A stretch of DNA of 64,000 nt from Roseburia sp. (GCA_023667765.1 JAMOZS010000006.1:537-64536), one strand, 5' to 3'; positions 26,891 to 57,491 are shown, numbered from the stretch's first letter. The notes: generated by a model not told the origin, from the letters alone. Program-made: numbers and translations.

Positions 26891-26919
26891 TTGACAGTTT
26901 TTTGCCGATGGGCTATAAT
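26891..26919 (+). promoter_or_regulatory. sigmaA promoter of the Rpn gene
   Basis: TTGACA-N17-TATAAT, exact consensus. Confidence 0.85.
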
Positions 26920-28237: not shown

Positions 28238-28258
28238 AGTCTGAATGGGAGAAGAATT

Positions 28259-36439: not shown

Positions 36440-38368
36440 ATGGCAGAATATATTTTCCCTTTTGATATGATTCCGAAAGAATCTGATATTATTATTTATG
36501 CTATGGGAGTTGTGGGACAGTGCTTCTATGAACAGGTTGCGAAACTTCAATACTGTAATGTGGCGGCATTGATTGATAGGGATGCGGACGAATTTTTTTC
36601 GCCTCAGTATCCCGTTGAACCATTAAGCGCCCTGGCGAAATATGCCTTTGACTATATAGTGATTGCGATTCTTGAGGACAGTATTGCTCAGGCGGTCAGG
36701 GGGGAATTAATAACAAATTATGGCGTTCCTTCCGAAAAGATAATATGGGTCAAGCCCAGGGAGCTGCAGGAAAATAAATCATTGTATAGGTTAAGCCAAA
36801 TGACAAAAGGGCATCAGGAATTGTCTTTTTGTCTGGAGGATTTTATGAAGAGAGGCAACGGCGATATAGCCTCCTTTTCCGGTGCCATCGAAGAATTAAA
36901 GCACTATTCCTATACAAATATTGAATTGTGTGAAAAATATAAAGAATATTTTATGCAGTATCTGGCAAAAGAACGCTCGCCTAAAAAGAGAATCATTCTG
37001 CTGAGATTCTTATATGAGGCAGGATGTTTTGACGGGAAATGCGCAGAATTATTTATGCGCAGTATCCGGGATATCAAAGGCAATTATGAAGCCAGAATAT
37101 GGCTGACATGGGATATTTCATGCATGGAAGCCAGAATGGCGTCTATCAGATATCATAACTTTTTCCTGGATAAAAGAGAAATTATCCGGGAAAATATTTC
37201 TCCCTTTGTTAATGTGGTTCATAGAAACGCGCAGGTTGGGGAAAAGCGGCAGCGTGATAAGAAATATATTGCCATTATAGGTCATAATTTTGACCAGACG
37301 TCATCCTCTCATTTTAAATTTATGCGGCCCTATGTAAATGAAATGAGTGCGCAGGGATATCAAATTAAAATTTTTCCCATTGACTTGTTGAGATTCAGAG
37401 AGGGAGAAAGCTTCCTCCGGCCAATCGTTGTGTTAGATAAAAGGTCCTATCTGGCCCGACAGGAATATTCGGAATTTCTGGCGCCGGAAATAGAGGTGGT
37501 AATTCCCGAGGGAGCCACCATGCAGGAGAGAATCGAACATTTTGCGGAACATCTGTATGCCTTTCATCCGGACATAGTATATGATTTTTCCGGTGAATAT
37601 GCCTTCTGCTCCCCCATCTATTATGATGCCTTTCCAACTGTGGCCATGCCCATGAGGGGATATGCGTCCAGCGCATGGTTTGACAAATATGTGGCAAGGG
37701 ATAAGAAAATATGTATAGAGGAGAATTCCATATTTCATTCTGTTTCTGAGGAACAAATGGAAGAAGCATTGCCGGATTTATGCAAGTACAGTATACCCTG
37801 CAGCAGGCCCTTTGGCAGGTCGGAGCATGGATTTAAAGAGGAAGCATTCTTAATTGTAACCAGCGGATATCGTCTGCGGCAGGAGCTGACCAGGGATTTT
37901 GTGGATTGTGTAGGTTCTTTCTTAAAGGAACATACGGATGCGGTCTGGCTGCTGGTAGGGGACGCCATATGCGATTACATCAAGCAGGCGTATGGCGCTT
38001 TGCTGGACGAGAAGAGGATTATCGAATGGGGATTTGAACCGGATTTGTATGGCTTATATGGAATGTGTGATATTTACTGGAATCCGAATCGCAACGGCGC
38101 TGCAGGATGTATTTATATGGCCATGCAATGCGGAATACCAATCGTATCCTCTGCTTTCCCCTCTGATATTCTGCCCCAGCTGGGCAGAGAAAATGCTGTT
38201 GAAGGAGATTATAACGAGTGTAAAAAATATGCGGATATTCTCTATGCAGATAAAGAAGTGCGTAAAGAAAAGGGGAAATTAATGTTGGAACGAACCCGGA
38301 ATACTCCGGGCGGGGTAGAAAATTATGTAAAGAAGCTCATTGAGATTGGGGAGAGCATCTTAAAATAG
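36440..38368 (+). CDS. GT-B glycosyltransferase-like protein with an N-terminal Rossmann-like module
   Basis: C-terminal DIYWNPNRNGAAGCIYMAMQCGIPIVS (GT4-like). N-terminal IIIYAMGVVG. Confidence 0.6.
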   Translation: MAEYIFPFDMIPKESDIIIYAMGVVGQCFYEQVAKLQYCNVAALIDRDADEFFSPQYPVEPLSALAKYAFDYIVIAILEDSIAQAVRGELITNYGVPSEKIIWVKPRELQENKSLYRLSQMTKGHQELSFCLEDFMKRGNGDIASFSGAIEELKHYSYTNIELCEKYKEYFMQYLAKERSPKKRIILLRFLYEAGCFDGKCAELFMRSIRDIKGNYEARIWLTWDISCMEARMASIRYHNFFLDKREIIRENISPFVNVVHRNAQVGEKRQRDKKYIAIIGHNFDQTSSSHFKFMRPYVNEMSAQGYQIKIFPIDLLRFREGESFLRPIVVLDKRSYLARQEYSEFLAPEIEVVIPEGATMQERIEHFAEHLYAFHPDIVYDFSGEYAFCSPIYYDAFPTVAMPMRGYASSAWFDKYVARDKKICIEENSIFHSVSEEQMEEALPDLCKYSIPCSRPFGRSEHGFKEEAFLIVTSGYRLRQELTRDFVDCVGSFLKEHTDAVWLLVGDAICDYIKQAYGALLDEKRIIEWGFEPDLYGLYGMCDIYWNPNRNGAAGCIYMAMQCGIPIVSSAFPSDILPQLGRENAVEGDYNECKKYADILYADKEVRKEKGKLMLERTRNTPGGVENYVKKLIEIGESILK

Positions 38369-38421
38369 CGGCAGAGGCTGCCGGCTTTGACAGAGTTATC
38401 ATCTGTCGGGGAGAAAGAAGT

Positions 38422-39765
38422 ATGGGTACAATAACCGATAAATTTGTTCAGTATTTATATGATTTAACGCAGCAGGATTTTTCTGACCAAGTCAAATGCA
38501 AAAGTAAAGAGCATCTGATTGATTATCTGGCAGCGGCGTATGGAGGAGCCGGCGTCAACCGGAAGGTGACGGAGGAAATTGCCGGGGATTATCCGGGTGA
38601 TGTTCACGTCATTGGATATCATAAACGAGTCAGTATGGATGCGGCAATTCTCTTAAATGCTTTCAATGCTCATGTCCTGGAGTTGGACGACGGGCATCGC
38701 AATGCCATGATGCATTTGGCTGCGCCAATCTTTTCGGGATTGTTGGCGGTTGCGGAAAAAAAAGAAAAGAATCTGGCGGATTTGCTGAAGGGCGCCGTTA
38801 TCGGATACGAGACGGCAGTCCGTCTGGGGACGGTCATCCAGCCCTCCCATAAGAGGAAGGGATTTCATGCCACCGGTACATGCGGCGCCATCGGCACGGC
38901 CATGGGAATTGCCGCCATGCTGGGGTATGATAAAGCCGGGATGAAGAATGTGCTGAGCGCAGCGGCTACATCCGCATCAGGGCTGTTGGAAGTCATTACC
39001 GGACAGTCAGAGCAGAAACCCTATAATGTGGCCCAGGCTGCGGCGGCCGGGACGAATGCGGCTCTGTTTGGAAAATACTTTTCGGGGCCGGAGGATGTGT
39101 TGGGCGGACCGAGAGGATTTATAAAGTGTTTCAGCGATAAGAGTGTGGAAGAAGAACTTACAAAACCTCAGGAAAAGCTTGGTATATGGGGGGCCTATAT
39201 GAAACCGTATGCCGCGTGCAGGCATTGTCATGCCCCTATTGAGGCGGCGCTGAATCTCAGAAAAGAATATGACTTTGCCGTTACGGACATTGAGGCGGTG
39301 GTTGTGACTACCTATGAGCTGGCAGTATATGGACATGACCATTGGAGTATTACCAGTGTGGGAGAGGCGAAGATGAGCATTCCTTATAGCGTGGCGGCGG
39401 CGCTTTTATATCATACCGCAGGTGCAGATGCGTTTACCGAAGATAAGTTCAGGGATTCCCGAGCTTGTGAGCTTGCCCGAAAGGTAAAAGTGGTAAGTTC
39501 AGAGGAGCTGACAGCGCTGACCAGAGAGAGGCGGGCGGCAATCGTGACGATTCATCTGCAGGACGGAAGAATATGGGAAAATCGTGTGGATTATCCCAAA
39601 GGGGAACCCGAAAATCCCATATCCCAGGAGGAACTGGAGGCCAAATTTGTCTCGCTGGTTACTTCGGCAGGGTACAGTGAACCATACTGCACAGATATTT
39701 TAAAGAGGATTAACGGGTCTGAACCAATGAAAATAAGGGATTTGCTGTCGGCAATGGAAAGGTAA
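38422..39765 (+). CDS. MmgE/PrpD family protein
   Basis: LELDDGH, HLAAP, GFHATG, KPYAACRHCHAPIEA, and YPKGEPENP motifs. Confidence 0.9.
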   Translation: MGTITDKFVQYLYDLTQQDFSDQVKCKSKEHLIDYLAAAYGGAGVNRKVTEEIAGDYPGDVHVIGYHKRVSMDAAILLNAFNAHVLELDDGHRNAMMHLAAPIFSGLLAVAEKKEKNLADLLKGAVIGYETAVRLGTVIQPSHKRKGFHATGTCGAIGTAMGIAAMLGYDKAGMKNVLSAAATSASGLLEVITGQSEQKPYNVAQAAAAGTNAALFGKYFSGPEDVLGGPRGFIKCFSDKSVEEELTKPQEKLGIWGAYMKPYAACRHCHAPIEAALNLRKEYDFAVTDIEAVVVTTYELAVYGHDHWSITSVGEAKMSIPYSVAAALLYHTAGADAFTEDKFRDSRACELARKVKVVSSEELTALTRERRAAIVTIHLQDGRIWENRVDYPKGEPENPISQEELEAKFVSLVTSAGYSEPYCTDILKRINGSEPMKIRDLLSAMER

Positions 39766-39777
39766 ACAGGAGGAAAT

Positions 39778-40821
39778 ATGCCAAGAGTTTCGCTGGAAAA
39801 GATTGATCATATCACAAAATATGTGCTTCTAAAATGCGGCGTGGATAAGGACAGTATAGAGATTATTCAGCAGACGATTCGGTTTGCCAACCGGCGTGGA
39901 GTCGCCACCCATGGTGTGGGCAGACTGCCGCTTTATGTCAAAAAAATCCAAAGTGGAACCCTGAATCCTGTGAATTGCATGGAGCAGGTCAGCTCCAGTG
40001 GCGCAGTCGCCGTCTATGACGCCCATAACGGGTTTGGACAGGTTGCGGCCGAATGGGCCATGAAGGATTGCCTGGAGCGTGCCGGGACAACCGGTATTGC
40101 GGCGGTTGGTGTGCGAAACAGTCATAATTTCGGTATGGCAGGATATTTTGGCGAGATGGCGGCCCGGCAGGGGATGGCGGCAATTATCTTTGCGAATGCG
40201 GCTCCGGCCATAGCTCCTACGGGAGGGGCCAAACCGCTGCTGGGAACCAATCCTCTGTGTTATGCTTTTCCGGGCAGCGATACGCAGCCCCCCGTTATTT
40301 TAGATATGGCAACATCCGTAGCCGCCAGAGGGAAAATCCGGCTTGCGGCCAAAAACGGTGAAAAGATTCCCCTGGACTGGGCCATGGATAAGAACGGGAA
40401 ACCCACGGAAGACCCAAATGAGGCGCTTGCGGGCTCTCTGTTTCCGATTGGCGGATATAAAGGGTACGGCCTGGCGTTGTTTGTGGATATGTTTGCCGGA
40501 CTGCTGACAGGCTCGGCCTATGCGGGGGGAGTGCAGCCCTTAAGTAAGACAGAGGTTCCCTCCCGGAACGGGCATCTGTTTATTACTTTGGATGTAAAGA
40601 AATTTGTTGATGAGGCGGAATACCGAACGAGACTGGATATTCTGAGAAGGGAAATTCTTAGCTGCGGCGCTCCCGGAAATGTGTTATTTCCCGGAGAGCG
40701 GGGTTATCGGGAAACTGACAAAAATACAGAAACGGTGGAGCTTCCCCTTAAGCAGATTCAGGAGATTAACAAACTGGCAGATACACTTTCCGTCCCGGAA
40801 CATCTGGAAATCGTAACATAG
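39778..40821 (+). CDS. Ldh_2-family (malate/L-sulfolactate-type) oxidoreductase
   Basis: RGVATHGVGRL, NSHNFG, GTNPL, DMATS, GGYKGYGL. Confidence 0.9.
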   Translation: MPRVSLEKIDHITKYVLLKCGVDKDSIEIIQQTIRFANRRGVATHGVGRLPLYVKKIQSGTLNPVNCMEQVSSSGAVAVYDAHNGFGQVAAEWAMKDCLERAGTTGIAAVGVRNSHNFGMAGYFGEMAARQGMAAIIFANAAPAIAPTGGAKPLLGTNPLCYAFPGSDTQPPVILDMATSVAARGKIRLAAKNGEKIPLDWAMDKNGKPTEDPNEALAGSLFPIGGYKGYGLALFVDMFAGLLTGSAYAGGVQPLSKTEVPSRNGHLFITLDVKKFVDEAEYRTRLDILRREILSCGAPGNVLFPGERGYRETDKNTETVELPLKQIQEINKLADTLSVPEHLEIVT

Positions 40822-40885
40822 CCACAGGCTGTTCTATCCGTGAGATGATAAGAACGACGGGGATACATGAGGAGAAAATAAATAT

Positions 40886-42022
40886 ATGAGACATCACCAA
40901 TACAACCCGGATTTCCAATTTGTGAAGGAACCGGTAGAGTTCTGTAAGTATACGGAGCGGGAGCTGCTTCAATATTGTCTGGGGGCAACTATGTATATGC
41001 CGGGCACGAAGGATTTCGCAGCCGCCATTATCGGCAGAAAATATCCGGGACTTACCTCCATGGTGCTTTGTTTTGAAGACGCCTGCAGGCTGGAGGACGT
41101 CCCTGCGGCGGAGGAAAATTCCATTCAGCTGCTTCATTTGATAAGTGATAAAATGGAAGCGGGAGAGATAAGCTATCGGGAACTGCCGTTGATTATTTTC
41201 AGGATAAGGAATATGGAGCAGTTTCATAATTTTGCCGAGCGGCTGGAGCCGAGGCATATGAAGCTGATAACAGCGTTTAACTTTCCCAAGTTTAATTCGG
41301 AGAACGGGGAGGCGTACTATAGTTATCTACGGGAATTAAACGAAAAGTTTGGCGAAATTATTTACGGTATGCCCATTATGGAAGACCGGAGAGTGGCTTT
41401 TAAGGAATCCCGGATGGAGGAGTTATTGGCGGTCAGGGATATTCTGGCAAGGTATAAGGATATCGTTTTAAATATTCGGGTGGGGGGAACGGATTTTTCT
41501 TCCTGCTTTGGCGTGAGGCGGGGCATTAATTATACGATATATGACATTATGACGGTTCGGGATTGTCTGATGGATATCTTGAATGTGTTTTCCAGGGACA
41601 ATGAATATACGCTTTCCGGGCCGGTTTGGGAGTACTTCCGGGCAAGCAAGGAAATGAGATGGAAAAATCTGCCGGAGTTTGACTTTACGGAAACTCTGAT
41701 TAAACGGGAGCCCATTGTAAATGACGCCGTTGACGGTTTGTTGCGGGAACTGATTTTGGACAAGGCGAATGGATTTATCGGAAAAACGATTATACATCCT
41801 TCCCATTTGAATTTTGTAAACGGTATGTTGGCCGTTACCCGGGAGGAGTATGAGGACGCCTGCCAGATTTTACAGACGTCCGGAGGAGTGATAAAGAGTG
41901 CGGACGCTAATAAAATGAATGAGATTGGCCCTCATAAGAACTGGGCGGAGAAGCTGTATATGCGGGCAATGGCTTACGGTGTGATTGAAAATGAGTCGGA
42001 GTACCTGAAATTATTTGGATAG
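40886..42022 (+). CDS. HpcH/HpaI aldolase / citrate-lyase-like TIM barrel (C-C bond lyase family)
   Basis: LGATMYMPGT, LCFEDA, NIRVGGTDFS, GFIGKTIIHPSH, KMNEIGPH. Confidence 0.8.
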   Translation: MRHHQYNPDFQFVKEPVEFCKYTERELLQYCLGATMYMPGTKDFAAAIIGRKYPGLTSMVLCFEDACRLEDVPAAEENSIQLLHLISDKMEAGEISYRELPLIIFRIRNMEQFHNFAERLEPRHMKLITAFNFPKFNSENGEAYYSYLRELNEKFGEIIYGMPIMEDRRVAFKESRMEELLAVRDILARYKDIVLNIRVGGTDFSSCFGVRRGINYTIYDIMTVRDCLMDILNVFSRDNEYTLSGPVWEYFRASKEMRWKNLPEFDFTETLIKREPIVNDAVDGLLRELILDKANGFIGKTIIHPSHLNFVNGMLAVTREEYEDACQILQTSGGVIKSADANKMNEIGPHKNWAEKLYMRAMAYGVIENESEYLKLFG

Positions 42023-42059
42023 ATTGGGATAGATTGGGATAGAAAAGAGAGGGATAATT

Positions 42060-42953
42060 ATGAAGGAGACCAGAGCCTTTTTAAAATCGATAGGAATGCC
42101 GGACAGGGATGCATATGATTTGCCTGATTCTCTGAAGACTTTTGCGGACGGAGGACAATATCGTTTTGAGGTGCCCGGAATTCAGGGCCCGAAGGTAATG
42201 GAAGCTCTTCTGGAGGAGATGGATAAATATGGGATATGGCTGCACCGGGTGACCCAGACTAAGGGAATTATGCTGTTGACTGACAACGAGATACTCCATA
42301 TGGTTCAGCTTGCAAAGGAACAGAAAATTGATTTGATTCTGGCAATTGGGCCGAGGGCTACCACTGATACAAGCGCTTCTGTAAATACGCCCGAGGGGGT
42401 TCGTATGGGATACCGGTTAAGAGGACAGGAACAGGTGGTCCGCGCAGTAGAGGATGTAAAACGGGCGGCGGCATTGGGGTGCCGATTCTTTTTGGTTTAT
42501 GACGAGGGCTGTCTGTGGCTGCTAAACGAGATGAGGAAGGCCGGGGAGATTCCCGGAGACTGCCGATTTAAGGTTTCCGCTCATATGGGGCATGGGAATC
42601 CATGCTCCGCCAGACTGCTGGAAAGCATAGGCGCCGATTCCATCAACCCTGTGAGAGACATCCAGCTCCAGATGCTGGCAGCGATACGTCAGGCAATAGA
42701 GATTCCGATAGATATCCATACGGAGAACCCAAAATCCACAGGGGGCTTTATCCGACATTATGAAGTGCCGGAGATGATTCGTATTGCGGCGCCAATCTAT
42801 TTAAAGACGGGAGGCTCGGTGGCCCAGACCCACAGCTGGGAATCGACGACTGAGGATGCGAAGAAGAGGGCGAAACAGGTGTCTCTTGTAAAGAGGATGA
42901 TAGATACTTACTATCCGGAGGCCGTCCAGTCTCTTCGGGGAAGTGTTGAATAA
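42060..42953 (+). CDS. U32-peptidase-like TIM-barrel protein of unknown function
   Basis: KVSAHMGHGNP..GADSINP..PIDIH pattern, recognised only loosely. Confidence 0.5.
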   Translation: MKETRAFLKSIGMPDRDAYDLPDSLKTFADGGQYRFEVPGIQGPKVMEALLEEMDKYGIWLHRVTQTKGIMLLTDNEILHMVQLAKEQKIDLILAIGPRATTDTSASVNTPEGVRMGYRLRGQEQVVRAVEDVKRAAALGCRFFLVYDEGCLWLLNEMRKAGEIPGDCRFKVSAHMGHGNPCSARLLESIGADSINPVRDIQLQMLAAIRQAIEIPIDIHTENPKSTGGFIRHYEVPEMIRIAAPIYLKTGGSVAQTHSWESTTEDAKKRAKQVSLVKRMIDTYYPEAVQSLRGSVE

Positions 42954-42978
42954 GAGGATGCTGGGGCAGGAGTGTGTT

Positions 42979-44241
42979 ATGGACAATGGAAAAAAAAAGA
43001 CAGCGCTGGTTTTAGGCGGTATAGGGGCGCACAGAGAGTTGCTTATCCGGTTGAAACAGAGGGGATATGATACGCTGCTGGTAGATTATTTTGACAATCC
43101 GCCGGCAAAGGATGCAGCGGACGTGCATATAAAAGAAAGTACGCTGGATAAGGAAAAAGTACTGGAAATTGCAAGGAAATGGAATATTTCCGTAATCCTC
43201 AGCGGGTGTGTAGATCAGGTGAATGCCACCGCCTGTTATGTGTCGGAAAAACTGGGCTTATATACCCCCTATAGTTATGAGACGGCCCTTAGAATTAACG
43301 ATAAAGATTGTATGAAAAGGGTTATGCAGGAGCAGGGCGTATTAACCTCTCAATATTATTGTATCAAATCAAAAGAGGAGATTCTACAAAAAGAGTTACG
43401 GTATCCCGTTATGGTAAAGCCTGCTAATTGTAATTCCGCCAATGGGGTAAAAAAAGCGGAAAATAAAGAACAGATGTTAATTTACCTGGAGCAGTCATTT
43501 GCAATCAGCAGAAACGGGAAAGCCATTATAGAAGAATATGTAGAGGGAAAAGAGTTCAGCGCGTATTGTTATATTCATAACGGAAGGGCAAAATTGCTGA
43601 TGACCAGTGAGAGAATCAGTATTATAGAGGGTGAGGAAAAGGTCATTAAATGCTATGGGGCGCTGATTCCCGCCCGTATTCCCAGGGAGCTTGAAAAAAA
43701 GGCGGAGGATATTGCCGGTAAACTGGCGAAGGCGTTCGGAATAACCAATTCTCTATTCTTTTTTCAGGGGATTGCAACGAAGGACGATATCAGTATGATA
43801 GAATTTGCTCCCCGCATTGGCGGGGGGGTCTGTTTTAAGACCATTCCAATGAATACAGGCTTTGATGTAATGGATGCCGTCATAAGGTGTGCCTTGGGTG
43901 AACAGGCGGACGTAAGCGCCTGGCATCCGCCGATAAATGTTCTGGCGGTCAATACGGTATATGCCAGAGACTGCGTATTTGACCATGTCGAGGGAGTAGA
44001 CCGGCTGCTGGCCGGGCATGTGATTGAGGATTTTATCATGTATAAAACAAAAGGCATGCATATAGACAACCGTTCTGCCAGCGGTGGGAGAATCGGCGCT
44101 TTTATAGTGAAGGGAGCGAGTGAAGAAGAAATTCTGGAATCCGTTCATAAAGCATATGATAGATTATCTGTTCAAAGCGCTGAGGGTGAGGAGGTTTTGA
44201 GAAGGGATTTAAACCTGTATGCGATGCAGGGGACTTATTGA
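42979..44241 (+). CDS. ATP-grasp domain ligase
   Basis: LVLGGIG, DKDCMK, PVMVKPANCNSANGV, IIEEYVEGKEFS, IEFAPRIGGG. Confidence 0.85.
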   Translation: MDNGKKKTALVLGGIGAHRELLIRLKQRGYDTLLVDYFDNPPAKDAADVHIKESTLDKEKVLEIARKWNISVILSGCVDQVNATACYVSEKLGLYTPYSYETALRINDKDCMKRVMQEQGVLTSQYYCIKSKEEILQKELRYPVMVKPANCNSANGVKKAENKEQMLIYLEQSFAISRNGKAIIEEYVEGKEFSAYCYIHNGRAKLLMTSERISIIEGEEKVIKCYGALIPARIPRELEKKAEDIAGKLAKAFGITNSLFFFQGIATKDDISMIEFAPRIGGGVCFKTIPMNTGFDVMDAVIRCALGEQADVSAWHPPINVLAVNTVYARDCVFDHVEGVDRLLAGHVIEDFIMYKTKGMHIDNRSASGGRIGAFIVKGASEEEILESVHKAYDRLSVQSAEGEEVLRRDLNLYAMQGTY

Positions 44242-44278
44242 GGATAGGGCAAGGTATGCTTTGAAGGAGGACTGTGAA

Positions 44279-44782
44279 TTGATAACGATTCAAACGCCGA
44301 TATCAGAGGAAATGGTCCGGGAGCTGCACTTAGGAGACCGGATTTTGCTATCGGGAAAAATCTATTGCGGCAGAGACGCCGTGCTGCCTAAGATATGCAG
44401 GTTAATGGAACAGGGAGCCTTAGAACAACAGGGAATCAACTTGACGGGAAGTGTGATTTTCCATACGGCGGTCAGCCCTGCGGGGGTGGGGCCCACTTCC
44501 AGCAACAAGGCGGAGATTGAAGCAAGTATTGCGCCGCTCTCGAAGGCAGGAGTTAAACTGCATCTGGGGAAAGGGGCGATTGGCAGCGACGCTATTGCGG
44601 CTCTGGAGGAATATAACGCCGCCTACGCTGTGATTCCTCCCGTTACGGCTCTATTGGGAAACGGTATTATCTCCCGGAAGGTTATCGCCTTTCCGGAGCT
44701 GGGCATGGAAGCATTTTACGAGCTGGAGGTCAGGGAGTATCCTGCGATTATCGGAGCGATTCATAATAGCAGCGTCTATTGA
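44279..44782 (+). CDS. Class I fumarate hydratase / tartrate dehydratase beta (C-terminal) subunit
   Basis: LHLGDRILLSGKIYCGRDA, GPTSS, HLGKG, ELGMEA. TTG start after GGAGG. Confidence 0.85.
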   Translation: MITIQTPISEEMVRELHLGDRILLSGKIYCGRDAVLPKICRLMEQGALEQQGINLTGSVIFHTAVSPAGVGPTSSNKAEIEASIAPLSKAGVKLHLGKGAIGSDAIAALEEYNAAYAVIPPVTALLGNGIISRKVIAFPELGMEAFYELEVREYPAIIGAIHNSSVY

Positions 44783-44859
44783 GTCAGAGCCTCAAATTGC
44801 AATCGCAGCCGAGAATTTGAGATTCTCGGCGCGGTGTCATCGCAGTAAGCTGCTCTGAC
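44783..44859. other. Structured intergenic element
   Basis: Outer stem gtcagagc/gctctgac, inner stem gccgagaat/attctcggc, alternative pairing ctcaaatt/aatttgag. Confidence 0.5.
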
Positions 44860-44872
44860 AGGGAGGATTAGT

Positions 44873-45727
44873 ATGAATTATGATGAGGAAATTGTGGAGA
44901 AAGTCTGCAGGACCCTGGTAGAAGCGGGCTCAACATTTTCGCCTGATAAAAAGAAAGCTTATGAGAGGGCGATTGCGGAGGAAGACAATGAGCAGGCAAA
45001 GTGGGTGATGGAGATGTTGTTGAAAAATTCCTGTTATGCGGAAAAAAACAGCAGCCCCCTTTGCGACGATACCGGTATTCCCCATCTGGTTCTGGAGATG
45101 GGCCCTCATGCCGCCATTACAGGCAATATGCTGGAGTCTATTCAGGAGGGAGTTCGGCAGGGGCTCAGGAGACTGCCGGGACGTCCTATGGCAGTCAAAG
45201 GGAATGACAGACAGCGAATTGACCAGTCATTGGGATTGGATGAAGATCCGGCGGCCCTGGAAACGGCGCCGGTTGTGATGCGCAATATGACAGAAGATAC
45301 GATTCGGCTGCATGTGCTGATGCTGGGAGGCGGACCTGCCATACGTGCAAAGACCTATCGGATTTTTCATAAACACAGTGTGGAAGCTGTCCTGGATGAA
45401 ATCGTCTCATGGGCGGTGGAAGCCACGAAACTGTTAGGATGTACCCCCAGTACCTTGGCAGTCGGCATCGGGCGCTCCCATTATGAGGCGGCGGCACTGA
45501 TGCTGCAGGCCATGGTGGACGGCTCCTATGACAGGCAGAGTGATTTGGAAAAGGAGATTACAAAGCGGGTGAACCGGGCGGGCTCAGGAACCCTGGGTCT
45601 GGGAGGGAAGAACACGGTTCTGGCTACTTTTATGAAAATCGGTCCCCAGCGGGCCAGCGGGGTCAGGATTGTCTGCCTGAGACCATGCTGTTGTTTTGAG
45701 CCGAGAACGGCAAGTGTTGAGTTGTGA
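44873..45727 (+). CDS. Class I fumarate hydratase / tartrate dehydratase alpha (Fe-S) subunit
   Basis: PLCDDTG, LGCTP, GTLGLGG..TVL, CCF Fe-S ligands. Confidence 0.85.
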   Translation: MNYDEEIVEKVCRTLVEAGSTFSPDKKKAYERAIAEEDNEQAKWVMEMLLKNSCYAEKNSSPLCDDTGIPHLVLEMGPHAAITGNMLESIQEGVRQGLRRLPGRPMAVKGNDRQRIDQSLGLDEDPAALETAPVVMRNMTEDTIRLHVLMLGGGPAIRAKTYRIFHKHSVEAVLDEIVSWAVEATKLLGCTPSTLAVGIGRSHYEAAALMLQAMVDGSYDRQSDLEKEITKRVNRAGSGTLGLGGKNTVLATFMKIGPQRASGVRIVCLRPCCCFEPRTASVEL

Positions 45728-45814
45728 CAGTCGGGCAAGGGAAAGAAGAATTCCGGGTAATGGGGAAGCAATGCAAGAGAGACAGGTTTTGAAAGCAGAG
45801 ACGGGAGGTTGGGT

Positions 45815-47143: not shown

Positions 47144-47180
47144 CAGTATGGTCAGCTTTAGGAAAGGAGATGTTCAGGGA

Positions 47181-48581: not shown

Positions 48582-48660
48582 ACGGAATGAAAATTTTCCG
48601 GTTTGTGCTGCGGCAGGCGGCATGATGGGAGCGCGTCAAAATGCGCAGAAAGGCATATTG

Positions 48661-49839
48661 ATGAAGAAACCTGAACTTTCAGTCATAGTTCCGATATACA
48701 ATAGTGAAGAGTATCTGACGGAATGTATCGACAGTATTATGGGACAGAAATTTTGTAATATGGAGATGATTCTCATTGATGACGGCTCAACGGACGGCTC
48801 CGGGAAATTGTGTGACCGGTATGCCAAAAATGACCCACGGGTCCGGGTGATACATAGGGAGAACGGGGGGCTTCCCAATGCCAGAAAGGTTGGGGCAAGG
48901 GAGGCCCGGGCGGCCTATTTGACCTATGTAGACAGTGACGACCGAATCGAAACGGATATGTACGAAAATCTGATGAGCAGGATAAAACAGTGTGACCTGG
49001 AGGTGGATATGGTCACCTCGGGATTAATCTTTGAAAAGCCGGGCAGCGCCAGAAATGTTTCTGATTCCCTCCCATGCGGCGTGTACGGGCGGGAGAGTAT
49101 TGCTGACACCATAACGCCCAATATGATGCGCAGTTACATTACCGGGGAATATGGCGTTGTAAATTCGGCGGTTGCAAAGATATACAGGACGGAGCTTTTA
49201 AGAAAAGTAATATATCATATTGATAATTCCATTACCTACGGGGAGGATGAAGCGCTGGTGTATTCCTTGATTCCTCAGTGCGGCGGCATGATTATTACGG
49301 ATGAATGCTATTACCACTACAGACTTCATGAGGGCTCCATGAATCATACCTTTGACAGAAATTCTTTTGACAGAATTTTCCGATTAAAAGAGTATTTTTA
49401 CGCTACTTTTTCAAAGCTGGGAATCTGGGAGCAGCAGAGGCCCTTCGTGAATTTTAGTATTCATTCCTCTCTGGTATCGGCGGCGAAGTCCCTGTATGAT
49501 ATTGATATGCAGGCCTATGTGGCGCCCTATGAGTTGCTTCCCAGGGGAAGCCGGGTTATTATTTATGGCGCGGGGAAAGTGGGAAAAAATTATTATAATG
49601 AATTGACAAGCGGGCGTTATGCAGAAGTGATTGCGTGGGTTGACAGGGACTACGAGGCATATGTGAAAGCAGGGTATCCTGTCTGCAGTCCCGAAGAAAT
49701 TCCGGGCCTGCAGTATGACCTGATATGCATTGCCATAGAGGACGGGGATACGGCGGCAAAGATTAAAGAGGGAATCTGTGCAAAGGGTATTTCAGAGGAG
49801 AGGATAATATGGCGTCCGCCAGTATTTTTAAGAGTATAG
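48661..49839 (+). CDS. Glycosyltransferase family 2 with a C-terminal Rossmann-like module
   Basis: SVIVPIYNSEEYL, IDDGSTDGS, YVDSDD. Tail VIIYGAGKVG. Confidence 0.88.
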   Translation: MKKPELSVIVPIYNSEEYLTECIDSIMGQKFCNMEMILIDDGSTDGSGKLCDRYAKNDPRVRVIHRENGGLPNARKVGAREARAAYLTYVDSDDRIETDMYENLMSRIKQCDLEVDMVTSGLIFEKPGSARNVSDSLPCGVYGRESIADTITPNMMRSYITGEYGVVNSAVAKIYRTELLRKVIYHIDNSITYGEDEALVYSLIPQCGGMIITDECYYHYRLHEGSMNHTFDRNSFDRIFRLKEYFYATFSKLGIWEQQRPFVNFSIHSSLVSAAKSLYDIDMQAYVAPYELLPRGSRVIIYGAGKVGKNYYNELTSGRYAEVIAWVDRDYEAYVKAGYPVCSPEEIPGLQYDLICIAIEDGDTAAKIKEGICAKGISEERIIWRPPVFLRV

Positions 49840-49860
49840 CTCACGAGAGGAAATGATTTT

Positions 49861-51015
49861 GTGGAAAACAAAAAAGAGACACCTATAAGATTCGATGCGG
49901 ATGATTTGATATACAACCGCTTTGATATGCTTTATCCTGATGACAACAGTCGGTTTGTATGTGTATCTCATGAAAACAGCTATGCCATAGACATGCATGT
50001 GGAAGGGACAAAGGCCTTCCTGAATGTATGGGGAAAAACATATCCCCAGGAAGTGTTTGAGGAGGTTGTCAGAAGGGTTTTTGACCGGAAGGATATAGGT
50101 TCCATTCACATACAGCGGGGAGGCAATCATTACCGGGGATTTTTACAGGCAACAAATGATATGCGGATTCTGCTTCCCGATACGCCGGAGGGACTGACGG
50201 ACCGTATGAGGGCGAAGCATCGTTCGAACATACGGAGAATGGAACGGGAACTGGAAAAGGAGGGTCCGGTAAGCCTGGTCGTTTATTCGGAAAAGATACC
50301 GGATGATGTGGTGAAACAATATTTTCGGTGGAAAATGGCGACACATCACACGGATTACCATATGACGCCCCAGGAGTATTTAAACCATTATCATGTGACG
50401 GACGCCATGGTTCTGAAGGCGGGCAGCCGGATGGCGGCTGTGATTTTTTTCTGTCAGGTAGGAAAAATCGTCTATTTTGAGAATTTCAGTTATGATACCG
50501 ATTTAAAAAAGTATTCTCCCGGTCTGCTGGTATATAAGGCTCTTTTGGAAGAACTGATAAAGAGAGGCTGCCGATATTTATATCTGGGCGGCGGGGAGTA
50601 TGATTATAAGAGGCGGTTCGGGGCGGAGGAATATGAGGCTTACAGCGGGACGATATACCGGCCGGAGGTACTAGAGGAAATAAATGCTTTCTGTAGAAGA
50701 GAGGGATTGGAGAAGGCGGCCTTTTACGGATACGGGGTATGCGGACACGCTTTCCTGCAGTTAGCCTCCGAACTGGATATTGCCATTGCGTATGGCATTG
50801 ACCGTTGTGAGAAAAGCGATGAGAAAATAAGCTTCTTTCTGCCGGAGGAGGGCTGGCCCGATGCGGACGGGGTGTTTATCACCTTAAATACTCCGAACAG
50901 GGAAGTGGAGGAATTGTTGAAGAGCAGATTCCGAAGGGTATATTACTGGAATGAAGTGGTGGATGAATGTATGGCAAGATATTTAGAGCGGGGAAAGAGT
51001 GATGCAACAGCTTGA
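49861..51015 (+). CDS. GNAT acyltransferase (CelD/BcsL/Acetyltransf_6-like)
   Basis: KYSPGLLV...YLYLGGGEYDYKRRFG. Tail KAAFYGYGVCG. Confidence 0.75.
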   Translation: MENKKETPIRFDADDLIYNRFDMLYPDDNSRFVCVSHENSYAIDMHVEGTKAFLNVWGKTYPQEVFEEVVRRVFDRKDIGSIHIQRGGNHYRGFLQATNDMRILLPDTPEGLTDRMRAKHRSNIRRMERELEKEGPVSLVVYSEKIPDDVVKQYFRWKMATHHTDYHMTPQEYLNHYHVTDAMVLKAGSRMAAVIFFCQVGKIVYFENFSYDTDLKKYSPGLLVYKALLEELIKRGCRYLYLGGGEYDYKRRFGAEEYEAYSGTIYRPEVLEEINAFCRREGLEKAAFYGYGVCGHAFLQLASELDIAIAYGIDRCEKSDEKISFFLPEEGWPDADGVFITLNTPNREVEELLKSRFRRVYYWNEVVDECMARYLERGKSDATA

Positions 51016-52039
51016 GATAGATAAAACGCAGCATATGTTAATTGTGGCGCCTCATCCGGATGATGAGTGTATCGGGGCGGGGGGTATATTGGCCCTGTTT
51101 CCCGGGATATGCGATGTGCTGGTACTTTCCGACGGAAGACAGGGACAAGGGGATGTGCCTCCGGAGAGAGAAAAGGTTATCCGGAGAGAAGAATTTGTCA
51201 GGGAGATGACTTATCTGGGTGTCCGCAGGTATTTCTTCAGAGAATTTGAGGATGGGACATTGATGCGGCATCTGGACGGGCTGGACGACTTTGAACTGTA
51301 TGCCTATGACAAGGTATTTGTTACAGGAACACAGGATGGACATCCGGATCATACGGCGGCTGCGAACTGTGTGATGCGGGCGCTTAAAAGGCAGAAAAAC
51401 ATAAAAACACAATTATTTTTTTATGAAGTACATACACCCATACAGAATCCTACTCATTATCTGGACATAACCGATTCTATGAAAAGGAAAAAAAAATTAA
51501 TCTCTTTTCATCAATCCCAGTTAAGCGTGGTACCCTATGCTGATATGGCGGAGCATTTAGCTGTTTACCGGGGAATGCAGAACAGAATGCCGGACAGGCG
51601 CCTTGAGGTATACAGGCATGTTTCTGTTGGGGAATATGATACGGCGCAGGTATCGGAAGGGGAAGTACGCCTGCAGAAACAAACGGTGTTTTACTGGACC
51701 TATACAAGATGGGTTGAGAAACTGATTGGGGGAGGGCGGTTTGCGCCATTGCTCAGCGCCAGAGGCATTCAGAGTGTTGCGGTGTACGGTTATGCGGAAA
51801 TGGGGAAATTACTGACCCGGGAATTATTGCAGGAAGGGGTAGACGTCTTATATGTCATGGACAGAAAGGCGCATGGCTCCGAACAGGAGGCGCCGCCCGT
51901 CTGTTATCCTGACAAAAACCTGGCGAAGCCGGATGGGGTAATCGTTACGGCAGTCTTTGATTATGATGCCATCAGGGAAGAACTGGAGAAGATGGGCTTT
52001 CGCAAGATTCTTTCGCTGCGCACCCTGCTGGAGGAATGA
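50999..52039 (+). CDS. PIG-L family deacetylase/deacylase
   Basis: IVAPHPDDECIGAGG and GHPDH motifs. Tail VAVYGYAEMG. Confidence 0.88.
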   Translation: MMQQLEIDKTQHMLIVAPHPDDECIGAGGILALFPGICDVLVLSDGRQGQGDVPPEREKVIRREEFVREMTYLGVRRYFFREFEDGTLMRHLDGLDDFELYAYDKVFVTGTQDGHPDHTAAANCVMRALKRQKNIKTQLFFYEVHTPIQNPTHYLDITDSMKRKKKLISFHQSQLSVVPYADMAEHLAVYRGMQNRMPDRRLEVYRHVSVGEYDTAQVSEGEVRLQKQTVFYWTYTRWVEKLIGGGRFAPLLSARGIQSVAVYGYAEMGKLLTRELLQEGVDVLYVMDRKAHGSEQEAPPVCYPDKNLAKPDGVIVTAVFDYDAIREELEKMGFRKILSLRTLLEE

Positions 52040-52110
52040 CGGCAGGACTGTCTGCCATGAAACAGGGATGTTTACGGAGTGATTTTTATAGTTATGGGAG
52101 GACGGAATGT

Positions 52111-53222
52111 ATGGCTGAGCACGGTAAAAAAATTCTTCTGTTTGGACTGGGGCAGGGCGCTGAAGAATGTGAAAAGGTAATAAAAAAAGAACATTCTATT
52201 ATCGGGTATACAGATTCCTTTGCACAAATAGAGTGGTATAACAATAAGCCGTTTTATAAAATACAGGAAATAAATAACGTAGAATATGATTATATTGTTG
52301 TCACACTGTACAAGCTTGCAGAGTTACAGAAGGTTATTAAAATGCTGGTGGAAGAATACCACGTTAGTCCTGACAAGGTAGTTTCCCTTTGGTATGCTTT
52401 AAACAGGGAGCGCTGGCGCTATAAATTGTTAAATTATGATTTAGAACAGATTGAGACAATTATTTTTGGAAATTCCCATGCGCTCTATGGATTTTTAGAA
52501 AAGAAGATGTCCGGCCCTGCTATAAATTTTTCTGTAAACAGTGGGGACATTTTTCAGGACTATGTTATTATCAATGAAATTTTGGACAAATACAAAGACC
52601 GCTTCCCCAAACTGAAGAATATTATTATAGATTTGTGGGACTGGCATTATTTTAATTTTGACGTCTCAAGAGGGAGTGTGTATAGTAATTTCCTGCAATG
52701 TGGCGGCTGCATCACGATGCATCACAGGCCATATACGGATTTCCTCGGGGGGGGGTTAAGGGACAAAGTTTATTTATTGATGAATGTGTAGGGAGAAAAT
52801 CGTATGAAAATGACAGATGGGATTATATCAGCCCGGATGCACCAATAGATAAGGAGCTTTTGCATTCGAGCATCGTTACGAAGAAGAATGAGGATACGAT
52901 TCGGGAGAATGAAAGCATGTTAGAGGAAATGATGGCAAAGCTTCGTGGTTGGAAAGCAGGAAGGTTAAATCTGGTTTTTACATTGATTCCCCGCTATCTT
53001 TCTATGGAGCGTGCGGAAGAAGAGATGATGCAGGATTGGAAAAAGAATTTTTTGGAAATCGTGGAGCCTGTCTGTACGAAATACGGGGTAAAATTCTGGA
53101 ATTATAAGGGTAATAGAGAGATTTGCGATAACCATCGGTTTTTCCTGGATGTGTCTCATTTGAACACCATGGGAGGGTCGGCACTGACATCCCTATTGTG
53201 CAGAGACCTGCAAATGCTTTAG
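52111..53222 (+). pseudogene. SGNH-like ester hydrolase/acyltransferase, frameshifted at a G9 tract (candidate phase-variable, OFF state)
   Basis: ORF 52036-52791 (FGNSH) and ORF 52698-53222 (DVSHLN) fuse into one 370 aa frame if the tract is G10. Confidence 0.7.
52747..52755 (+). repeat. Poly-G homopolymer (G9)
   Basis: ttcctc-GGGGGGGGG-ttaagg, exactly at the frameshift. Confidence 0.9.
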
Positions 53223-53331
53223 AAATCGTCAGCTGTGTTGCAACAAAAGCAGCTTAACGGTGTTGGCGGGAAGAATCAATGACAGAAGGAATCACAAGAG
53301 AGATAGAAAAAACATAAAAAGGAGATACAGG

Positions 53332-54351: not shown

Positions 54352-54382
54352 ATCGATGTAAAAGGGAGCGGGTAAGGATAGC

Positions 54383-55327
54383 ATGGAAAGAAAAAAGAAA
54401 TTTTTTCAGGGAATGTATGATTATTATGAAGAGATTTTAAGAAAAGCCGGAGAGAAGGACATTATAATATGGGGATATGGCAAGGGCGGCGCTTTTTGCG
54501 AGTGTAGACTCAAGGAGTTGAATCCGAATGTCCGTATTCCGTATTATATTGACGAATTCCTCTATTTCCCCAATATGGCGGATTTAAATATATATCGCTC
54601 TTCCCTGCTGGATTATATAGATTCCTCCCGGTATGTTGTCTTGTTGACCATGTGGGAAAGTGAAAAGGCTCAGAAAAAAATGCGCGCCAGAGGATATAGG
54701 AAAGGGGAGACTTATTTTGACGTGCGCAGGGATATTGGGGGCAATTATCTGGAATACCTTCAGAGCGTCAACCCGGAGATTGATTTCAGGCCGGTTACCC
54801 ATCTCCAGAGACCGAATCAATTTACAGGAAACTATCATGACAGCACCCCTTTTGATTTCTGTGCCGTTGATAAGGTTTTTGAGAAAATCAGAGCGCTGGA
54901 TACAGAGAAAAGCTTTTTTGACATGGGATGCGGAAAAGGGCAGATTGTTTTAATGGCATATCTGTATGGCATGGATGTGGTTGGCGGCGTTGAATTCCTG
55001 GAGGATATTTATGAGACGGCCGGAAAAAACATGGCCTTGCTGAATATTGAGGCGGATATTTATTTGGGGGACGCCGCGGGATTTCAGGACATTGACCGGT
55101 ATAGTATTTTTTTCTTTTATAATTCTTTTTCAGGGGATATTTTGCGGGAAGTACTGAAAAATATAAAGAATAGTTATAACCGCAGACGGCGGCGGATTTA
55201 TTTTATCTATGCAAATCCGTATGAACATAAGATGCTTATGCAGGAAGGATACCGACTGTATACGCAGCTTAAAGTAGACTGCTATGACCCCTTGCTGAAT
55301 ATTTATCAGTATGGAAACGAGATATGA
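54383..55327 (+). CDS. Class I SAM methyltransferase with an N-terminal Rossmann-like module
   Basis: FFDMGCGKG, GVEF, LGDA, FFYNSF. N-terminal IIIWGYGKGG. Confidence 0.8.
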   Translation: MERKKKFFQGMYDYYEEILRKAGEKDIIIWGYGKGGAFCECRLKELNPNVRIPYYIDEFLYFPNMADLNIYRSSLLDYIDSSRYVVLLTMWESEKAQKKMRARGYRKGETYFDVRRDIGGNYLEYLQSVNPEIDFRPVTHLQRPNQFTGNYHDSTPFDFCAVDKVFEKIRALDTEKSFFDMGCGKGQIVLMAYLYGMDVVGGVEFLEDIYETAGKNMALLNIEADIYLGDAAGFQDIDRYSIFFFYNSFSGDILREVLKNIKNSYNRRRRRIYFIYANPYEHKMLMQEGYRLYTQLKVDCYDPLLNIYQYGNEI

Positions 55328-55418
55328 GGTAAGGGAAACTACGAGACAATGTCACAGTGGCTGTAAGGAAACGTGATTTGTGAGAGAAAGGTGATTCGAT
55401 ACGGGAGGGGCGGAGCCG

Positions 55419-57491
55419 ATGCCGGGTTTAGATGCTTTATATGAACATTTTCGGGATAAAAAAGTTGCCTTATACGGATTGAGTACAGAGACGGAACGGG
55501 TACTCCCCGAACTGGGGAATTATTTTCATATTATCGGTCTGCTGGACGGATTCAGGGAGGAGGGTGAAATCTATGGATTACCGATTCTGCCCTTATCCGC
55601 GGTGCTCCGGCAGCAGGCGGCCCTGATTATTGTAGTTGCCAGACCGGGCTCTTGCAGGGTGATTGCAAAACGGATTGGAGAGGTGTGCAGGGAGTCGGGA
55701 ATCGCTTTATTTGACATCAGAGGAAAGAATCTGCTGGAGGAAAGCAGGGTTTGTTATGATTTTTCGCTGCTTCCGGGATATACTCGGGGCGAATTGCTTC
55801 AGAAGATAGCTCAGGCAGATGTGGTAAGCTTTGATCTGTTTGACACCCTTGTTATGAGAAGGGTATTGTTTCCTACAGATATTTATGAATTGGTGGATAT
55901 TGCTCTCAGGAATCGGGGCGTTTCTATCAAAGGGTTTTCCAAGTTAAGGCTGGAGAGTGAAAAGGAGCTGGCAGTATCCGGTGCCCCGACTCTGGAAGAA
56001 ATATATCAGCATATGTTGAAAAAACTGGACGACGTCAATATTGCCGCATCTGAGCTTGCAGAACTGGAATGGCAGACAGACTGTAAGACCATTCTTCCAA
56101 GAACCGCTGTGTGCGAGGTGTTTTGCGAGATAGTGGAGGCCGGGAAAAGGGTATATATCGTTTCAGATACCTATTATACCTCCCCACAGCTGAATAGGCT
56201 TCTGGAACGGGCGGGAGTGAAAGGATATAAGGGGATTCTGGCTTCCTGTGAGTATGGAACGGGAAAGGTACAGCAGTTATTCGGACAGCTGAAGGAAAGT
56301 ATCGGCGCTTCCTCCTGTCTGCATATAGGGGATGATATTACGGCGGATGTGGAAGGGGCAGCCAGAGCCGGGATAGACAGCTTCCGGCTCTACAGCGGGA
56401 GTGATTTGCTGGATGCCGTGGGATATTTGGGATTGTCCGAGCATATGAACGCATTGACTGACAGACTGAAAATTGGTTTCTTTGTCTCGGAACTATTCAA
56501 TAATCCGTTTCAATTTGAAACAGAACAGAAGAGAATCGGAATATCTGATACCTATGACATCGGTTTTTTAGTCTGTGCGCCGATTATCAGTGATTTTGTC
56601 CTTTGGTTTCACAGACAGGTAAAGCGGTATGGTATACAAAATATCTGGTTTGGCGCCAGAGACGGTTATCTGCTCCAAAAGCTGTATCAGGAATTGGAGC
56701 CCGACGCCAGAACGGAATATTTCCTGACCTCAAGAACTGCGGCAATCAGGGCGGGGATATATGATAAAAGGGATATTCTGTATGTGGACGGTATGAAGTT
56801 TTCCGGAGGGCTGGAGGAGAATTTGAAGGCGAGATTCGGCCTGGAGGCGCGGGAAATTTCCGACCGGGATATTGCGTATGAAGAGGCGGGCCTGTTAAAA
56901 TATGAGAAAAGTATTTTGGAGAGTTCCGCCGTCTGGCGGGAAGGATATCAGGCATACCTTGATACATTGGAGATATCTGACGATGTCATTGCTTTTTTTG
57001 ATTTTGTGGCAAAGGGAACCACGCAGCTCTATGTTCAGAAATTAGTGAAACAACCTGTGAAGGGTTTGTATTTTCTGCAGCTGGAGCCAGGGTTTATGCA
57101 TGATAAGGGACTGGACATAGAGGCTTTTTATAAGAAGGAAGAGACGCAGAAGAGTAGTATCTATGATGACTATTATATATTGGAAACGATTTTGACTGCG
57201 CCCCATCCGAGTATCTATGGATTTGCGGACGGAGGAAAACCTGTATATGCCAAAGAGACAAGGTCGGAAGGAGATAAACGGTGTTTTCTGGGAGTACAGA
57301 ACGGGATTCTGGATTATTTTCGTCTCTATCTTGAGCTGGTGCCGAAGGACTTAAGACATGAGAACAAAAAGCTGGACGAAGTGTTTCTGAGATTGATACA
57401 TGGGCTGGAAATTACGGCTCCGGACTTTTTGTCCATGACAGTTGAGGATCCCTTTTTTAACCGCATGACGGAAATATCAGATTTGATTTAA
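55419..57491 (+). CDS. HAD-superfamily hydrolase, glycan-locus type
   Basis: SFDLFDTL, VSDTYY, HIGDD, ARDG motifs. N-terminal KVALYGL. Confidence 0.8.
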   Translation: MPGLDALYEHFRDKKVALYGLSTETERVLPELGNYFHIIGLLDGFREEGEIYGLPILPLSAVLRQQAALIIVVARPGSCRVIAKRIGEVCRESGIALFDIRGKNLLEESRVCYDFSLLPGYTRGELLQKIAQADVVSFDLFDTLVMRRVLFPTDIYELVDIALRNRGVSIKGFSKLRLESEKELAVSGAPTLEEIYQHMLKKLDDVNIAASELAELEWQTDCKTILPRTAVCEVFCEIVEAGKRVYIVSDTYYTSPQLNRLLERAGVKGYKGILASCEYGTGKVQQLFGQLKESIGASSCLHIGDDITADVEGAARAGIDSFRLYSGSDLLDAVGYLGLSEHMNALTDRLKIGFFVSELFNNPFQFETEQKRIGISDTYDIGFLVCAPIISDFVLWFHRQVKRYGIQNIWFGARDGYLLQKLYQELEPDARTEYFLTSRTAAIRAGIYDKRDILYVDGMKFSGGLEENLKARFGLEAREISDRDIAYEEAGLLKYEKSILESSAVWREGYQAYLDTLEISDDVIAFFDFVAKGTTQLYVQKLVKQPVKGLYFLQLEPGFMHDKGLDIEAFYKKEETQKSSIYDDYYILETILTAPHPSIYGFADGGKPVYAKETRSEGDKRCFLGVQNGILDYFRLYLELVPKDLRHENKKLDEVFLRLIHGLEITAPDFLSMTVEDPFFNRMTEISDLI

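Follow-up and report, generated by a model that had tools for sequence, protein, structure and literature searches.

The 64,000-nucleotide stretch of Roseburia sp. DNA analysed here (GCA_023667765.1, JAMOZS010000006.1:537-64536; hereafter the window) carries a flagellar filament locus followed by a long glycan island on the same strand. Within this island, nine plus-strand open reading frames (ORFs), lying between positions 36440 and 57491, include a segment of about 90-100 amino acids in their translations. A sequence-only reading of the window had placed this segment at one end or the other of nine unrelated enzymes, and both the translations and the profile positions agree with it: the segment is N-terminal in the ORFs starting at 36440, 52111, 54383 and 55419, and C-terminal in those starting at 45809, 47094, 48622, 49861 and 50999. 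The nine segments are confirmed as homologous, diverged copies of one module, of which the copies in 54383 and 49861 are the least certain members.

Nine copies of one module and their host enzymes

The first copy (36446-36757, on the plus strand like all the others; IIIYAMGVVG...ALIDRD) forms the N-terminus of a 642-amino-acid GT1-type protein (36440-38368), in which Pfam recognizes Glyco_trans_1_4 at residues 482-574. The second (46835-47137) ends a GT2 protein (45809-47143) and belongs to a divergent subtype, VVIMGAGRYAG...YVVSD, with a weak NeuD/PglB N-terminal match at residues 355-429 in the NCBIfam/Pfam scan. The third (48243-48569; VALYGAAKGG...VIFD) lies at the C-terminus of a radical SAM/SPASM protein (47094-48581), where Pfam gives a weak C2185-like_N match at residues 421-467. 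In the same protein, a SPASM/twitch-type Cys-rich domain (residues 39-99) precedes the radical SAM core (residues 128-289), an order opposite to the usual one, and NCBIfam gives a weak N_Twi_rSAM match. The fourth copy (49516-49815), at the C-terminus of a second GT2 protein (48622/48661-49839; P0016), has the canonical sequence VIIYGAGKVG...WVDRD...YDLICIA. The fifth (50674-50988; AAFYGYGVCG...YGID) is C-terminal in a GNAT protein (Acetyltransf_6; 49861-51015) and the sixth (51737-52036; VAVYGYAEMG...YVMD) in a PIG-L deacetylase-family protein (50999-52039; PIG-L at residues 14-128 in Pfam). The last three are N-terminal. The seventh (52117-52392) belongs to the gene 52111-53222, which is split by a frameshift and whose C-terminal part is SGNH-like by motif only; the eighth (54419-54754; IIIWGYGKGG...YYID), the weakest member, to a class I methyltransferase-like protein (54383-55327); and the ninth (55428-55739) to a 690-amino-acid HAD-type protein (55419-57491), in which the Gly loop is degenerate (VALYGLSTET) and the Asp is kept (GLLD).

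The host folds named in the sequence-only reading were largely recovered by Pfam and NCBIfam, which assign the GT1-type protein, the two GT2 proteins and the radical SAM/SPASM, GNAT, PIG-L and HAD hosts, and give a weak signal for the methyltransferase. The SGNH assignment did not hold to the same degree: the 52111 host has no Pfam or NCBIfam family match, only GNSH...DxSHLN-like motifs. The literal motif by which the segment had been defined fits strictly only three of the nine copies; a relaxed form fits all nine, plus one chance match in a non-coding frame.

Pairwise matches were found among some copies only (36440/48622, 54 bits; 47094/50999, 19 bits; 49861/50999, 15 bits). Leave-one-out hidden Markov models (HMMs) clearly recovered seven of the nine copies (21-45 bits, against noise of at most 6.6) and two marginally. 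Individual values were 35 bits for 52111, 32 for 47094, 28 for 50999, 20.9 for 54383 (E = 8e-6), 11 for 55419 and 9.9 for 49861, and the leave-one-out HMM failed to recover the copy of 45809. An outside profile was built from 175 module sequences of other proteins, leaving out those close to the window copies; it is not fully independent, because its sequences had first been found with the nine-copy profile. Among 530 six-frame ORFs of the window, the nine copies were the top nine for this profile, with 111 bits (48622), 96 (36440), 56 (52111), 38 (47094), 35 (50999), 22 (45809; E = 5e-6), 16 (55419; 15.8 before rounding), 9.6 (54383) and 9.1 (49861), against noise of at most 6.9. The copy of 49861 was the top non-family match in both the leave-one-out and the outside-profile searches.

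When single sequences were compared with the outside profile by hhalign, eight copies reached 90-99.9% (48622, 99.9%; 36440, 99.8%; 52111, 98.8%; 50999, 98.1%; 47094, 97.7%; 45809, 96.5%; 55419, 95.8%; 49861, 90.7%) and that of 54383 reached 64.5%. Small ortholog alignments lifted the weak copies, to 99.3% for 45809, 94.3% for 49861 and 86.3% for 54383 (each of the latter two with its ortholog) and 98.2% for 55419 (15 orthologs). The module of 55419 is kept in the orthologs of the islands L001-L005 described below. No further ORF of the window matches, so that the organic-acid enzymes, Stealth, LicD and the three DUF3880/CgeB-like glycosyltransferases are without the module; for all of these but LicD the absence had already been read from the sequence. 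Missed stop codons were considered as a source of artefactual fusions; the idea was dismissed because the same full-length proteins occur in independent assemblies.

The seventh host deserves a separate remark. Gene 52111-53222 is split by a -1 frameshift into the overlapping ORFs 52036-52791 and 52698-53222, at a plus-strand G9 homopolymer (52747-52755) that is the longest G/C run in the window; a G10 would restore a protein of 370 amino acids. Intact 370-amino-acid orthologs (P0019, and L005:13475-14587, the latter with PF22674) have no homopolymer there. The G9 is identical in one public run, and the unitigs of a second run, at low depth, end precisely at the tract. Either phase variation at this site or a sequencing error in the homopolymer may explain the frameshift. 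A search of P0019 against the PDB gave no significant match; therefore it is not a close homolog of 2g6t, the structure discussed next, beyond the module.

Fold and family of the module

AlphaFold was run on the 48622 copy only, with a multiple sequence alignment of 117 homologs. The full-length protein was modelled with a predicted local distance difference test score (pLDDT) of 95.5 and a predicted TM-score (pTM) of 0.85, and the module alone with a pLDDT of 97.3. The model is confident and shows a mini-Rossmann fold of the order beta1-alphaA-beta2-alpha-alpha-beta3-alphaC, half the usual size, with three main strands in about 95 amino acids. DSSP assigns beta1 to residues 298-302, a helix to 306-317 and beta2 to 322-327, with G303/G305/G308 and D328. 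The beta-alpha-beta fingerprint of classical NAD(P) Rossmann domains (GxGxxG plus an acidic residue ending beta-2) is present in the model. The classical six-stranded sheet, with its second mononucleotide half and catalytic partner, is not: there are three main strands only.

In a Foldseek search of the PDB, the module found 2g6t_A first (E = 1.2e-4, probability 1.00, TMq 0.65, root-mean-square deviation 2.7 over 90 columns), then 3nkl, and after these NAD(P) Rossmann domains and Rex. A deeper profile matched 3nkl (E = 1e-7), Rex (1.8e-4), 2g6t (3.3e-4) and the PglD-like acetyltransferase 7l7z (1.6e-3), and the profile of the nine copies alone reached 3nkl at E = 3e-6 in 177,635 sequences. The likeness to PglD N-terminal and CoA-binding-like domains that had been noticed by eye is therefore real. 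The entry 2g6t is an uncharacterised protein of Clostridium acetobutylicum, and the profile alignment to it spans only beta-2 onward; 3nkl is the N-terminal fragment of a WbpM/PglF-type "UDP-D-quinovosamine 4-dehydrogenase".

Both the profile and the fold searches of the PDB also returned weak matches to the Rossmann domains of KARI, LDH and GFO/IDH/MocA. These could be taken to mean that the module is a catalytic NAD(P) redox domain, or that unrelated segments resemble each other by chance or as generic Rossmann domains. We consider this very improbable. A module of about 95 amino acids and three main strands has no substrate or catalytic half, and the control Rossmann segments of the window itself (those of the alcohol dehydrogenase and the ATP-grasp pre-domain) gave no full-length match to the module profile in hhalign. 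Moreover, the threshold used in the library scan below, about 34 bits, lies above the scores of generic Rossmann proteins in the PDB search.

The module can be assigned to the Pfam domain C2185-like_N (PF22674), whose superfamily also includes PglD_N and the WbpM/PglF/WbaP N-terminal domain (CoA_binding_3). The PF22674 records, together with the profile and fold matches, identify it as a catalogued domain in the PglD_N/CoA_binding_3 neighbourhood. It is thus no undescribed entity, since Pfam already lists C2185-like_N, also on the GT2 protein of the window. In precomputed annotation, PF22674 is assigned to this protein (P0016) and, of the 1,394 homologs found, to almost all of the 120 listed; an exact-sequence look-up of P0016 found no record, and a relative with 85% identity was used instead. 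In the syntenic island L005, precomputed PF22674.3 is recorded at E<=1e-5 for the GT2 and the 370-amino-acid gene, with a weak match for the radical SAM protein; these are three of the eight module-bearing orthologs. With PF22674.2 run locally, the best of the nine copies scored 17.5 bits (47094) and none reached the gathering score of 27. Pfam therefore recognizes about three of the nine copies, and the other six were reached through profiles only. The family name implies an N-terminal position, which does not describe the module: five of the nine copies are C-terminal, and elsewhere copies are internal, at both ends or in tandem.

Neighbouring families were also compared. With PglD_N (PF17836), the highest score among the nine copies was 16 bits (48622), below the cut-off of 23.4, and none of the nine proteins has a Hexapep domain. 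None of the nine matched, at E<=10, any Pfam model beyond eleven, and PF13727 was not among the eleven. In the nine hosts, Pfam and NCBIfam found no phosphoglycosyl transferase (PGT) and no short-chain dehydrogenase/reductase (SDR; PglF-type dehydratase) domain. A canonical PglD_N, which the sequence-only reading did not list, lies close by: a PglD/NeuD-type hexapeptide acetyltransferase (35455-36201, minus strand), just upstream of the first module-bearing gene, has this domain at 35878-36087 on the minus strand (Pfam 23.4 bits, equal to the cut-off, with Hexapep). It scores 2.3 bits with the module profile and 34% in hhalign. This is noise level, and we therefore regard the module as a distinct family inside the superfamily.

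Distribution of the module and content of the island

A word-index search for homologs of the nine-segment profile gave nothing beyond nine truncated HAD-protein orthologs, and an exhaustive scan of the profile against 1.84 billion representative proteins was used instead. At E<=1e-3 (about 34 bits), the scan gives a minimum of 6,323 module-bearing protein clusters (clustered at 50% identity), of which 227 remain at E<=1e-10. The module is thus widespread. Among the best 150 of the 6,323 it is C-terminal in 59, N-terminal in 20, and at both ends, internal or in tandem in about 54. The hosts among 80 representative module proteins include GT2 (27), GT1/GT4, GT8, GT-D, WbsX, RgpF, Capsule_synth, TagF-like Glyphos_transf, DUF4422, PIG-L, methyltransferases and others. 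Family matches at E<=1e-5 among these 80 were to PglD_N in 13 and to C2185-like_N in 8, and some module proteins have CoA_binding matches. Arrays of up to four consecutive copies exist, for example in P0010 (a GT2 with four modules). Outside the window, the proteins P0010-P0018 have two to four tandem modules after a GT2 or another domain and may be multivalent binders or scaffolds. Most tandem copies keep YGxGxxG and the Asp, and some are without the beta-2 Asp (for example copies of P0018 and one of P0010).

The module is particularly dense in islands of the flagellin-glycosylation type from Lachnospiraceae and related bacteria; the related islands, from Lachnospiraceae, Roseburia and Oscillibacter, each have 5 to 10 or more genes with it. 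There are five or six such genes within about 22 kb in each of the islands L001-L004, eight in L005, and at least ten in succession in L007, an island of the Roseburia type. In the radical SAM hosts, the module is N-terminal in L002 and L004 and C-terminal in the window and in L003. Such placement at either end indicates that the fusions were independent events, and the idea of a portable domain on unrelated enzymes is in this respect well founded. One gene of L007 (5251-6150) encodes a 299-amino-acid protein with C2185-like_N and DUF1919, which probably has the same architecture as the 306-amino-acid 2g6t; we know of no function for DUF1919.

In the window, the flagellar filament genes are FlgK (14008), a FlgL-like gene (15938), FliD (18875) and two flagellins of 270 amino acids each (22148 and 24570). 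The island contains GT2 and DUF3880/CgeB-like glycosyltransferases, LicD, a DegT aminotransferase (34356-35462), which adjoins the PglD-like acetyltransferase, and Stealth. It also contains a ribulose-phosphate 3-epimerase, an IspD-family cytidylyltransferase and a zinc alcohol dehydrogenase, a set that, by our reading, resembles the genes of CDP-ribitol synthesis (TarI/TarJ-like). An ORF of the PD-(D/E)XK transposase family (26891-28042) lies between a CgeB-like glycosyltransferase (25471-26694, minus strand) and LicD (28211-29776). At the start of the island (33118-34233) is a predicted secreted protein of 371 amino acids with a signal-peptide-like N-terminus, an acidic TETETETE repeat and a C-terminal segment that is weakly CBM_X2-like.

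Between the first and second module-bearing genes lies an organic-acid-type block (38422-45727) with PrpD-like, Ldh_2 and C-C_Bond_Lyase (PF15617) proteins, an ATP-grasp/L-amino-acid-ligase-like protein, fumarase-type alpha and beta subunits, and an unassigned protein of 297 amino acids. Its likely product is an unusual acid substituent of the glycan, and its gene order is kept in the close relative L005. The latter is a syntenic island in a Logan assembly, whose proteins are 83-91% identical to those of the window. In the genome collection, the closest relatives of one island protein come from a Lachnospiraceae bacterium, a Roseburia metagenome-assembled genome (MAG) and an Oscillibacter MAG, at 47-55% identity.

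Function and comparison with known systems

The residues conserved across hosts give the first indication of function. A Gly-rich loop and an Asp ending beta-2 are the classical beta-alpha-beta fingerprint of nucleotide binding. Across the 175 modules, taken from many hosts, the Tyr-Gly-Ala-Gly-x-x-Gly loop after beta-1 is conserved (Y 89%, G 97%, G 96%, G 90%), and so are the Asp ending beta-2 (92%), the Asp starting beta-3 (83%) and the core hydrophobics. In the 117 GT2 fusions, G305, G308 and D328 are invariant, and identity is 37% in the module, 40% in the catalytic core and 22% in the linker helices. The beta-2 Asp occurs in all nine window copies (with a two-residue shift in 45809), and the loop is canonical or near-canonical in eight of them. 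In the profile alignment, the Gly loop and the Asp align with YGASGCG and FIDD of 7l7z. In that protein, UDP is bound by Ser11 and Cys13 of YGASGCG and Asp40/Asp41 of FIDD, through contacts to its ribose, phosphate and uracil; PglD conserves the same residues (PMC8040287). The related domain of WbaP (PF13727) binds UMP, UDP or UTP and forms a dimer interface (PMC10942596).

We therefore favour, somewhat above even chances, the explanation that the module is an ancient fused accessory domain acting as a binding platform for nucleotides or sugar nucleotides, integral to each host. According to this explanation, enzymes that assemble and tailor glycans have repeatedly acquired a domain of about 95 amino acids at one end or the other. 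Its ligand would be a nucleoside mono- or diphosphate or an NDP- or CMP-sugar. The Gly-rich loop that follows beta-1 (YGxGxxG) would touch the phosphates and ribose of this ligand, and the invariant Asp that closes beta-2 its ribose or base. In this way the module may hold the nucleotide "handle" of an activated-sugar substrate, or a nucleotide effector, beside the fused catalytic domain, and serve as a substrate-handle clamp or a sensor. The N-terminal domains of the PglD type (UDP-sugars) and the WbaP domain (UMP/UDP) are precedents for such handle binding. The hydrolase hosts (PIG-L, HAD and SGNH-like) use no nucleotide cofactor, so that a nucleotide site is most simply understood as one for a nucleotide-linked substrate or effector. 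Homo-oligomerisation, by analogy with WbaP, would fit as a second role.

The sequence-only reading had instead proposed a portable docking or carrier-recognition domain that recruits tailoring enzymes to a shared substrate or into a complex. In its strict form, the modules would bind each other or a scaffold and gather the tailoring enzymes on the flagellin glycan, with nucleotide binding absent or secondary. This is attractive because most island enzymes carry the module (nine in the window, five or six in each of L001-L004, eight in L005 and at least ten in L007) and because the tandem proteins with two to four modules could be hubs. The closest folds to the GT2 part are TarS/TarP/RmlT-like GT-A enzymes, which use C-terminal oligomerisation domains. 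The related WbaP domain forms a dimer interface (PMC10942596). However, identity between the nine copies is only 11-36%, whereas each copy is 48-91% identical to the corresponding segment in the orthologs of its own host. Divergence within one island with conservation among orthologs argues against an interchangeable docking tag for a shared partner; each copy would rather co-evolve with its own host, as an integral part of the enzyme. The conserved positions, moreover, are the Gly loop and Asp of the ligand site and the core hydrophobics, with no obvious common surface patch in sequence conservation, and the pTM of 0.85 for the full-length GT2 model suggests a fixed intramolecular packing and fits an intramolecular role. 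Because the residues conserved across hosts are those that contact nucleotides, recognition of nucleotide sugars is favoured over assembly-line docking. We consider docking in the strict form unlikely, although it deserves to be kept in view.

A slimmer chance is given to a purely structural or homo-oligomerisation domain, acting in each enzyme separately and with no specific ligand, in which the Rossmann fingerprint would be a relic. The Gly loop is indeed degenerate in some copies, the alignment to 2g6t covers only beta-2 onward, and WbaP and Rex offer precedents for dimerisation. This explanation is weakened by the beta-2 Asp, which has no usual structural role and yet is 92-100% conserved from host to host and kept in all copies of most tandem arrays.

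The favoured binding platform has difficulties of its own. The Gly loop is degraded to GxAxxG in 47094 and 50999, to GxSxxT in 55419 and to AxGxxG in 36440. The commonest hosts are glycosyltransferases, which already have a donor nucleotide site. Flagellin-glycan tailoring in other Firmicutes, as studied in C. difficile, may act on the protein-linked glycan, where there is no nucleotide handle. Finally, tandem arrays of two to four copies that keep the motif are more easily pictured as scaffolds or multivalent binders than as clamps for a single substrate. A more far-reaching idea is a nucleotide-gated homotypic interaction domain, through which the enzymes and tandem hubs would form a multi-enzyme glycan tailoring complex where flagellin is exported or glycosylated, with its assembly or activity under control of the sugar-nucleotide pool. 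We give this speculation little weight; if true, nucleotide-gated assembly would organise thousands of glycan enzymes in Gram-positive bacteria on one general principle.

Databases already list the domain family, its fold and its wider relatives. As far as the searchable literature goes, what is new is the extent to which whole islands are decorated, the hydrolase, radical SAM and methyltransferase hosts, and the C-terminal and tandem architectures. Our literature searches on CAC2185/2G6T/PF22674/PF17836, PglD_N/PF13727, DUF1919 and flagellin glycosylation found no functional study of the module, and when the complete GT2 fusion was the query of a fold search, all matches were GT-A enzymes (CgT, K4CP, RmlT, TarS/TarP, SpsA), the fusion itself being in no solved structure. 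The present gain is an improved annotation of module-bearing proteins. Public names such as "glycosyltransferase family 2 protein" or "hypothetical" ignore the module, and Pfam finds about a third of the window copies. The module marks nearly every enzyme of flagellin-associated glycan islands in Lachnospiraceae/Roseburia, which are abundant gut commensals and whose flagellins are prominent immune antigens. If it is a binder or sensor of the nucleotide handle, it would tell tailoring steps on activated sugars from those on the protein-linked glycan, and it would offer a generic regulatory site for such enzymes and a better HMM to find islands.

Known systems resemble the module to different degrees. 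The docking domains of polyketide synthases and non-ribosomal peptide synthetases are an analogy only: they too are small portable modules across successive enzymes of a pathway, but they are short helical pairs with matched partners and have no homology to it. Rex and the CoA_binding domains (PF02629) are related at a profile E of 1.8e-4 and provide the precedent of a nucleotide-pool sensor, whereas Rex has a full-size Rossmann domain in a DNA-binding repressor; we know of no link of these domains to glycan enzymes. PglD_N (PF17836; PglD/NeuD/Pcryo_0637) has in common with the module the YGxxGxG-type loop, the Asp that closes beta-2, the small alpha/beta domain and the 7l7z match. Unlike the module, modelled with three main strands, it has a five-stranded mixed sheet, is trimeric and is always followed by a left-handed beta-helix. 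No sequence link in the PDB is stronger than that to PF13727 (WbpM/PglF/CapD and WbaP; 3nkl, 8t53), which also ranks second by fold. It shares the module pattern YGAGxxG...FxDD...P(V/I)...D.VhhA, and the WbaP domain binds uridine nucleotides (PMC10942596); those proteins differ in being membrane-anchored, with a swapped beta-hairpin and an SDR dehydratase or PGT as partner. In comparison with PF22674 and its type structure 2g6t, the window has quite other host enzymes, with five of the nine copies C-terminal and none at the local cut-off. Even so, 2g6t is the best fold match (profile E of 3.3e-4), and PF22674 is found on the orthologs of the GT2, the 370-amino-acid and the radical SAM proteins.

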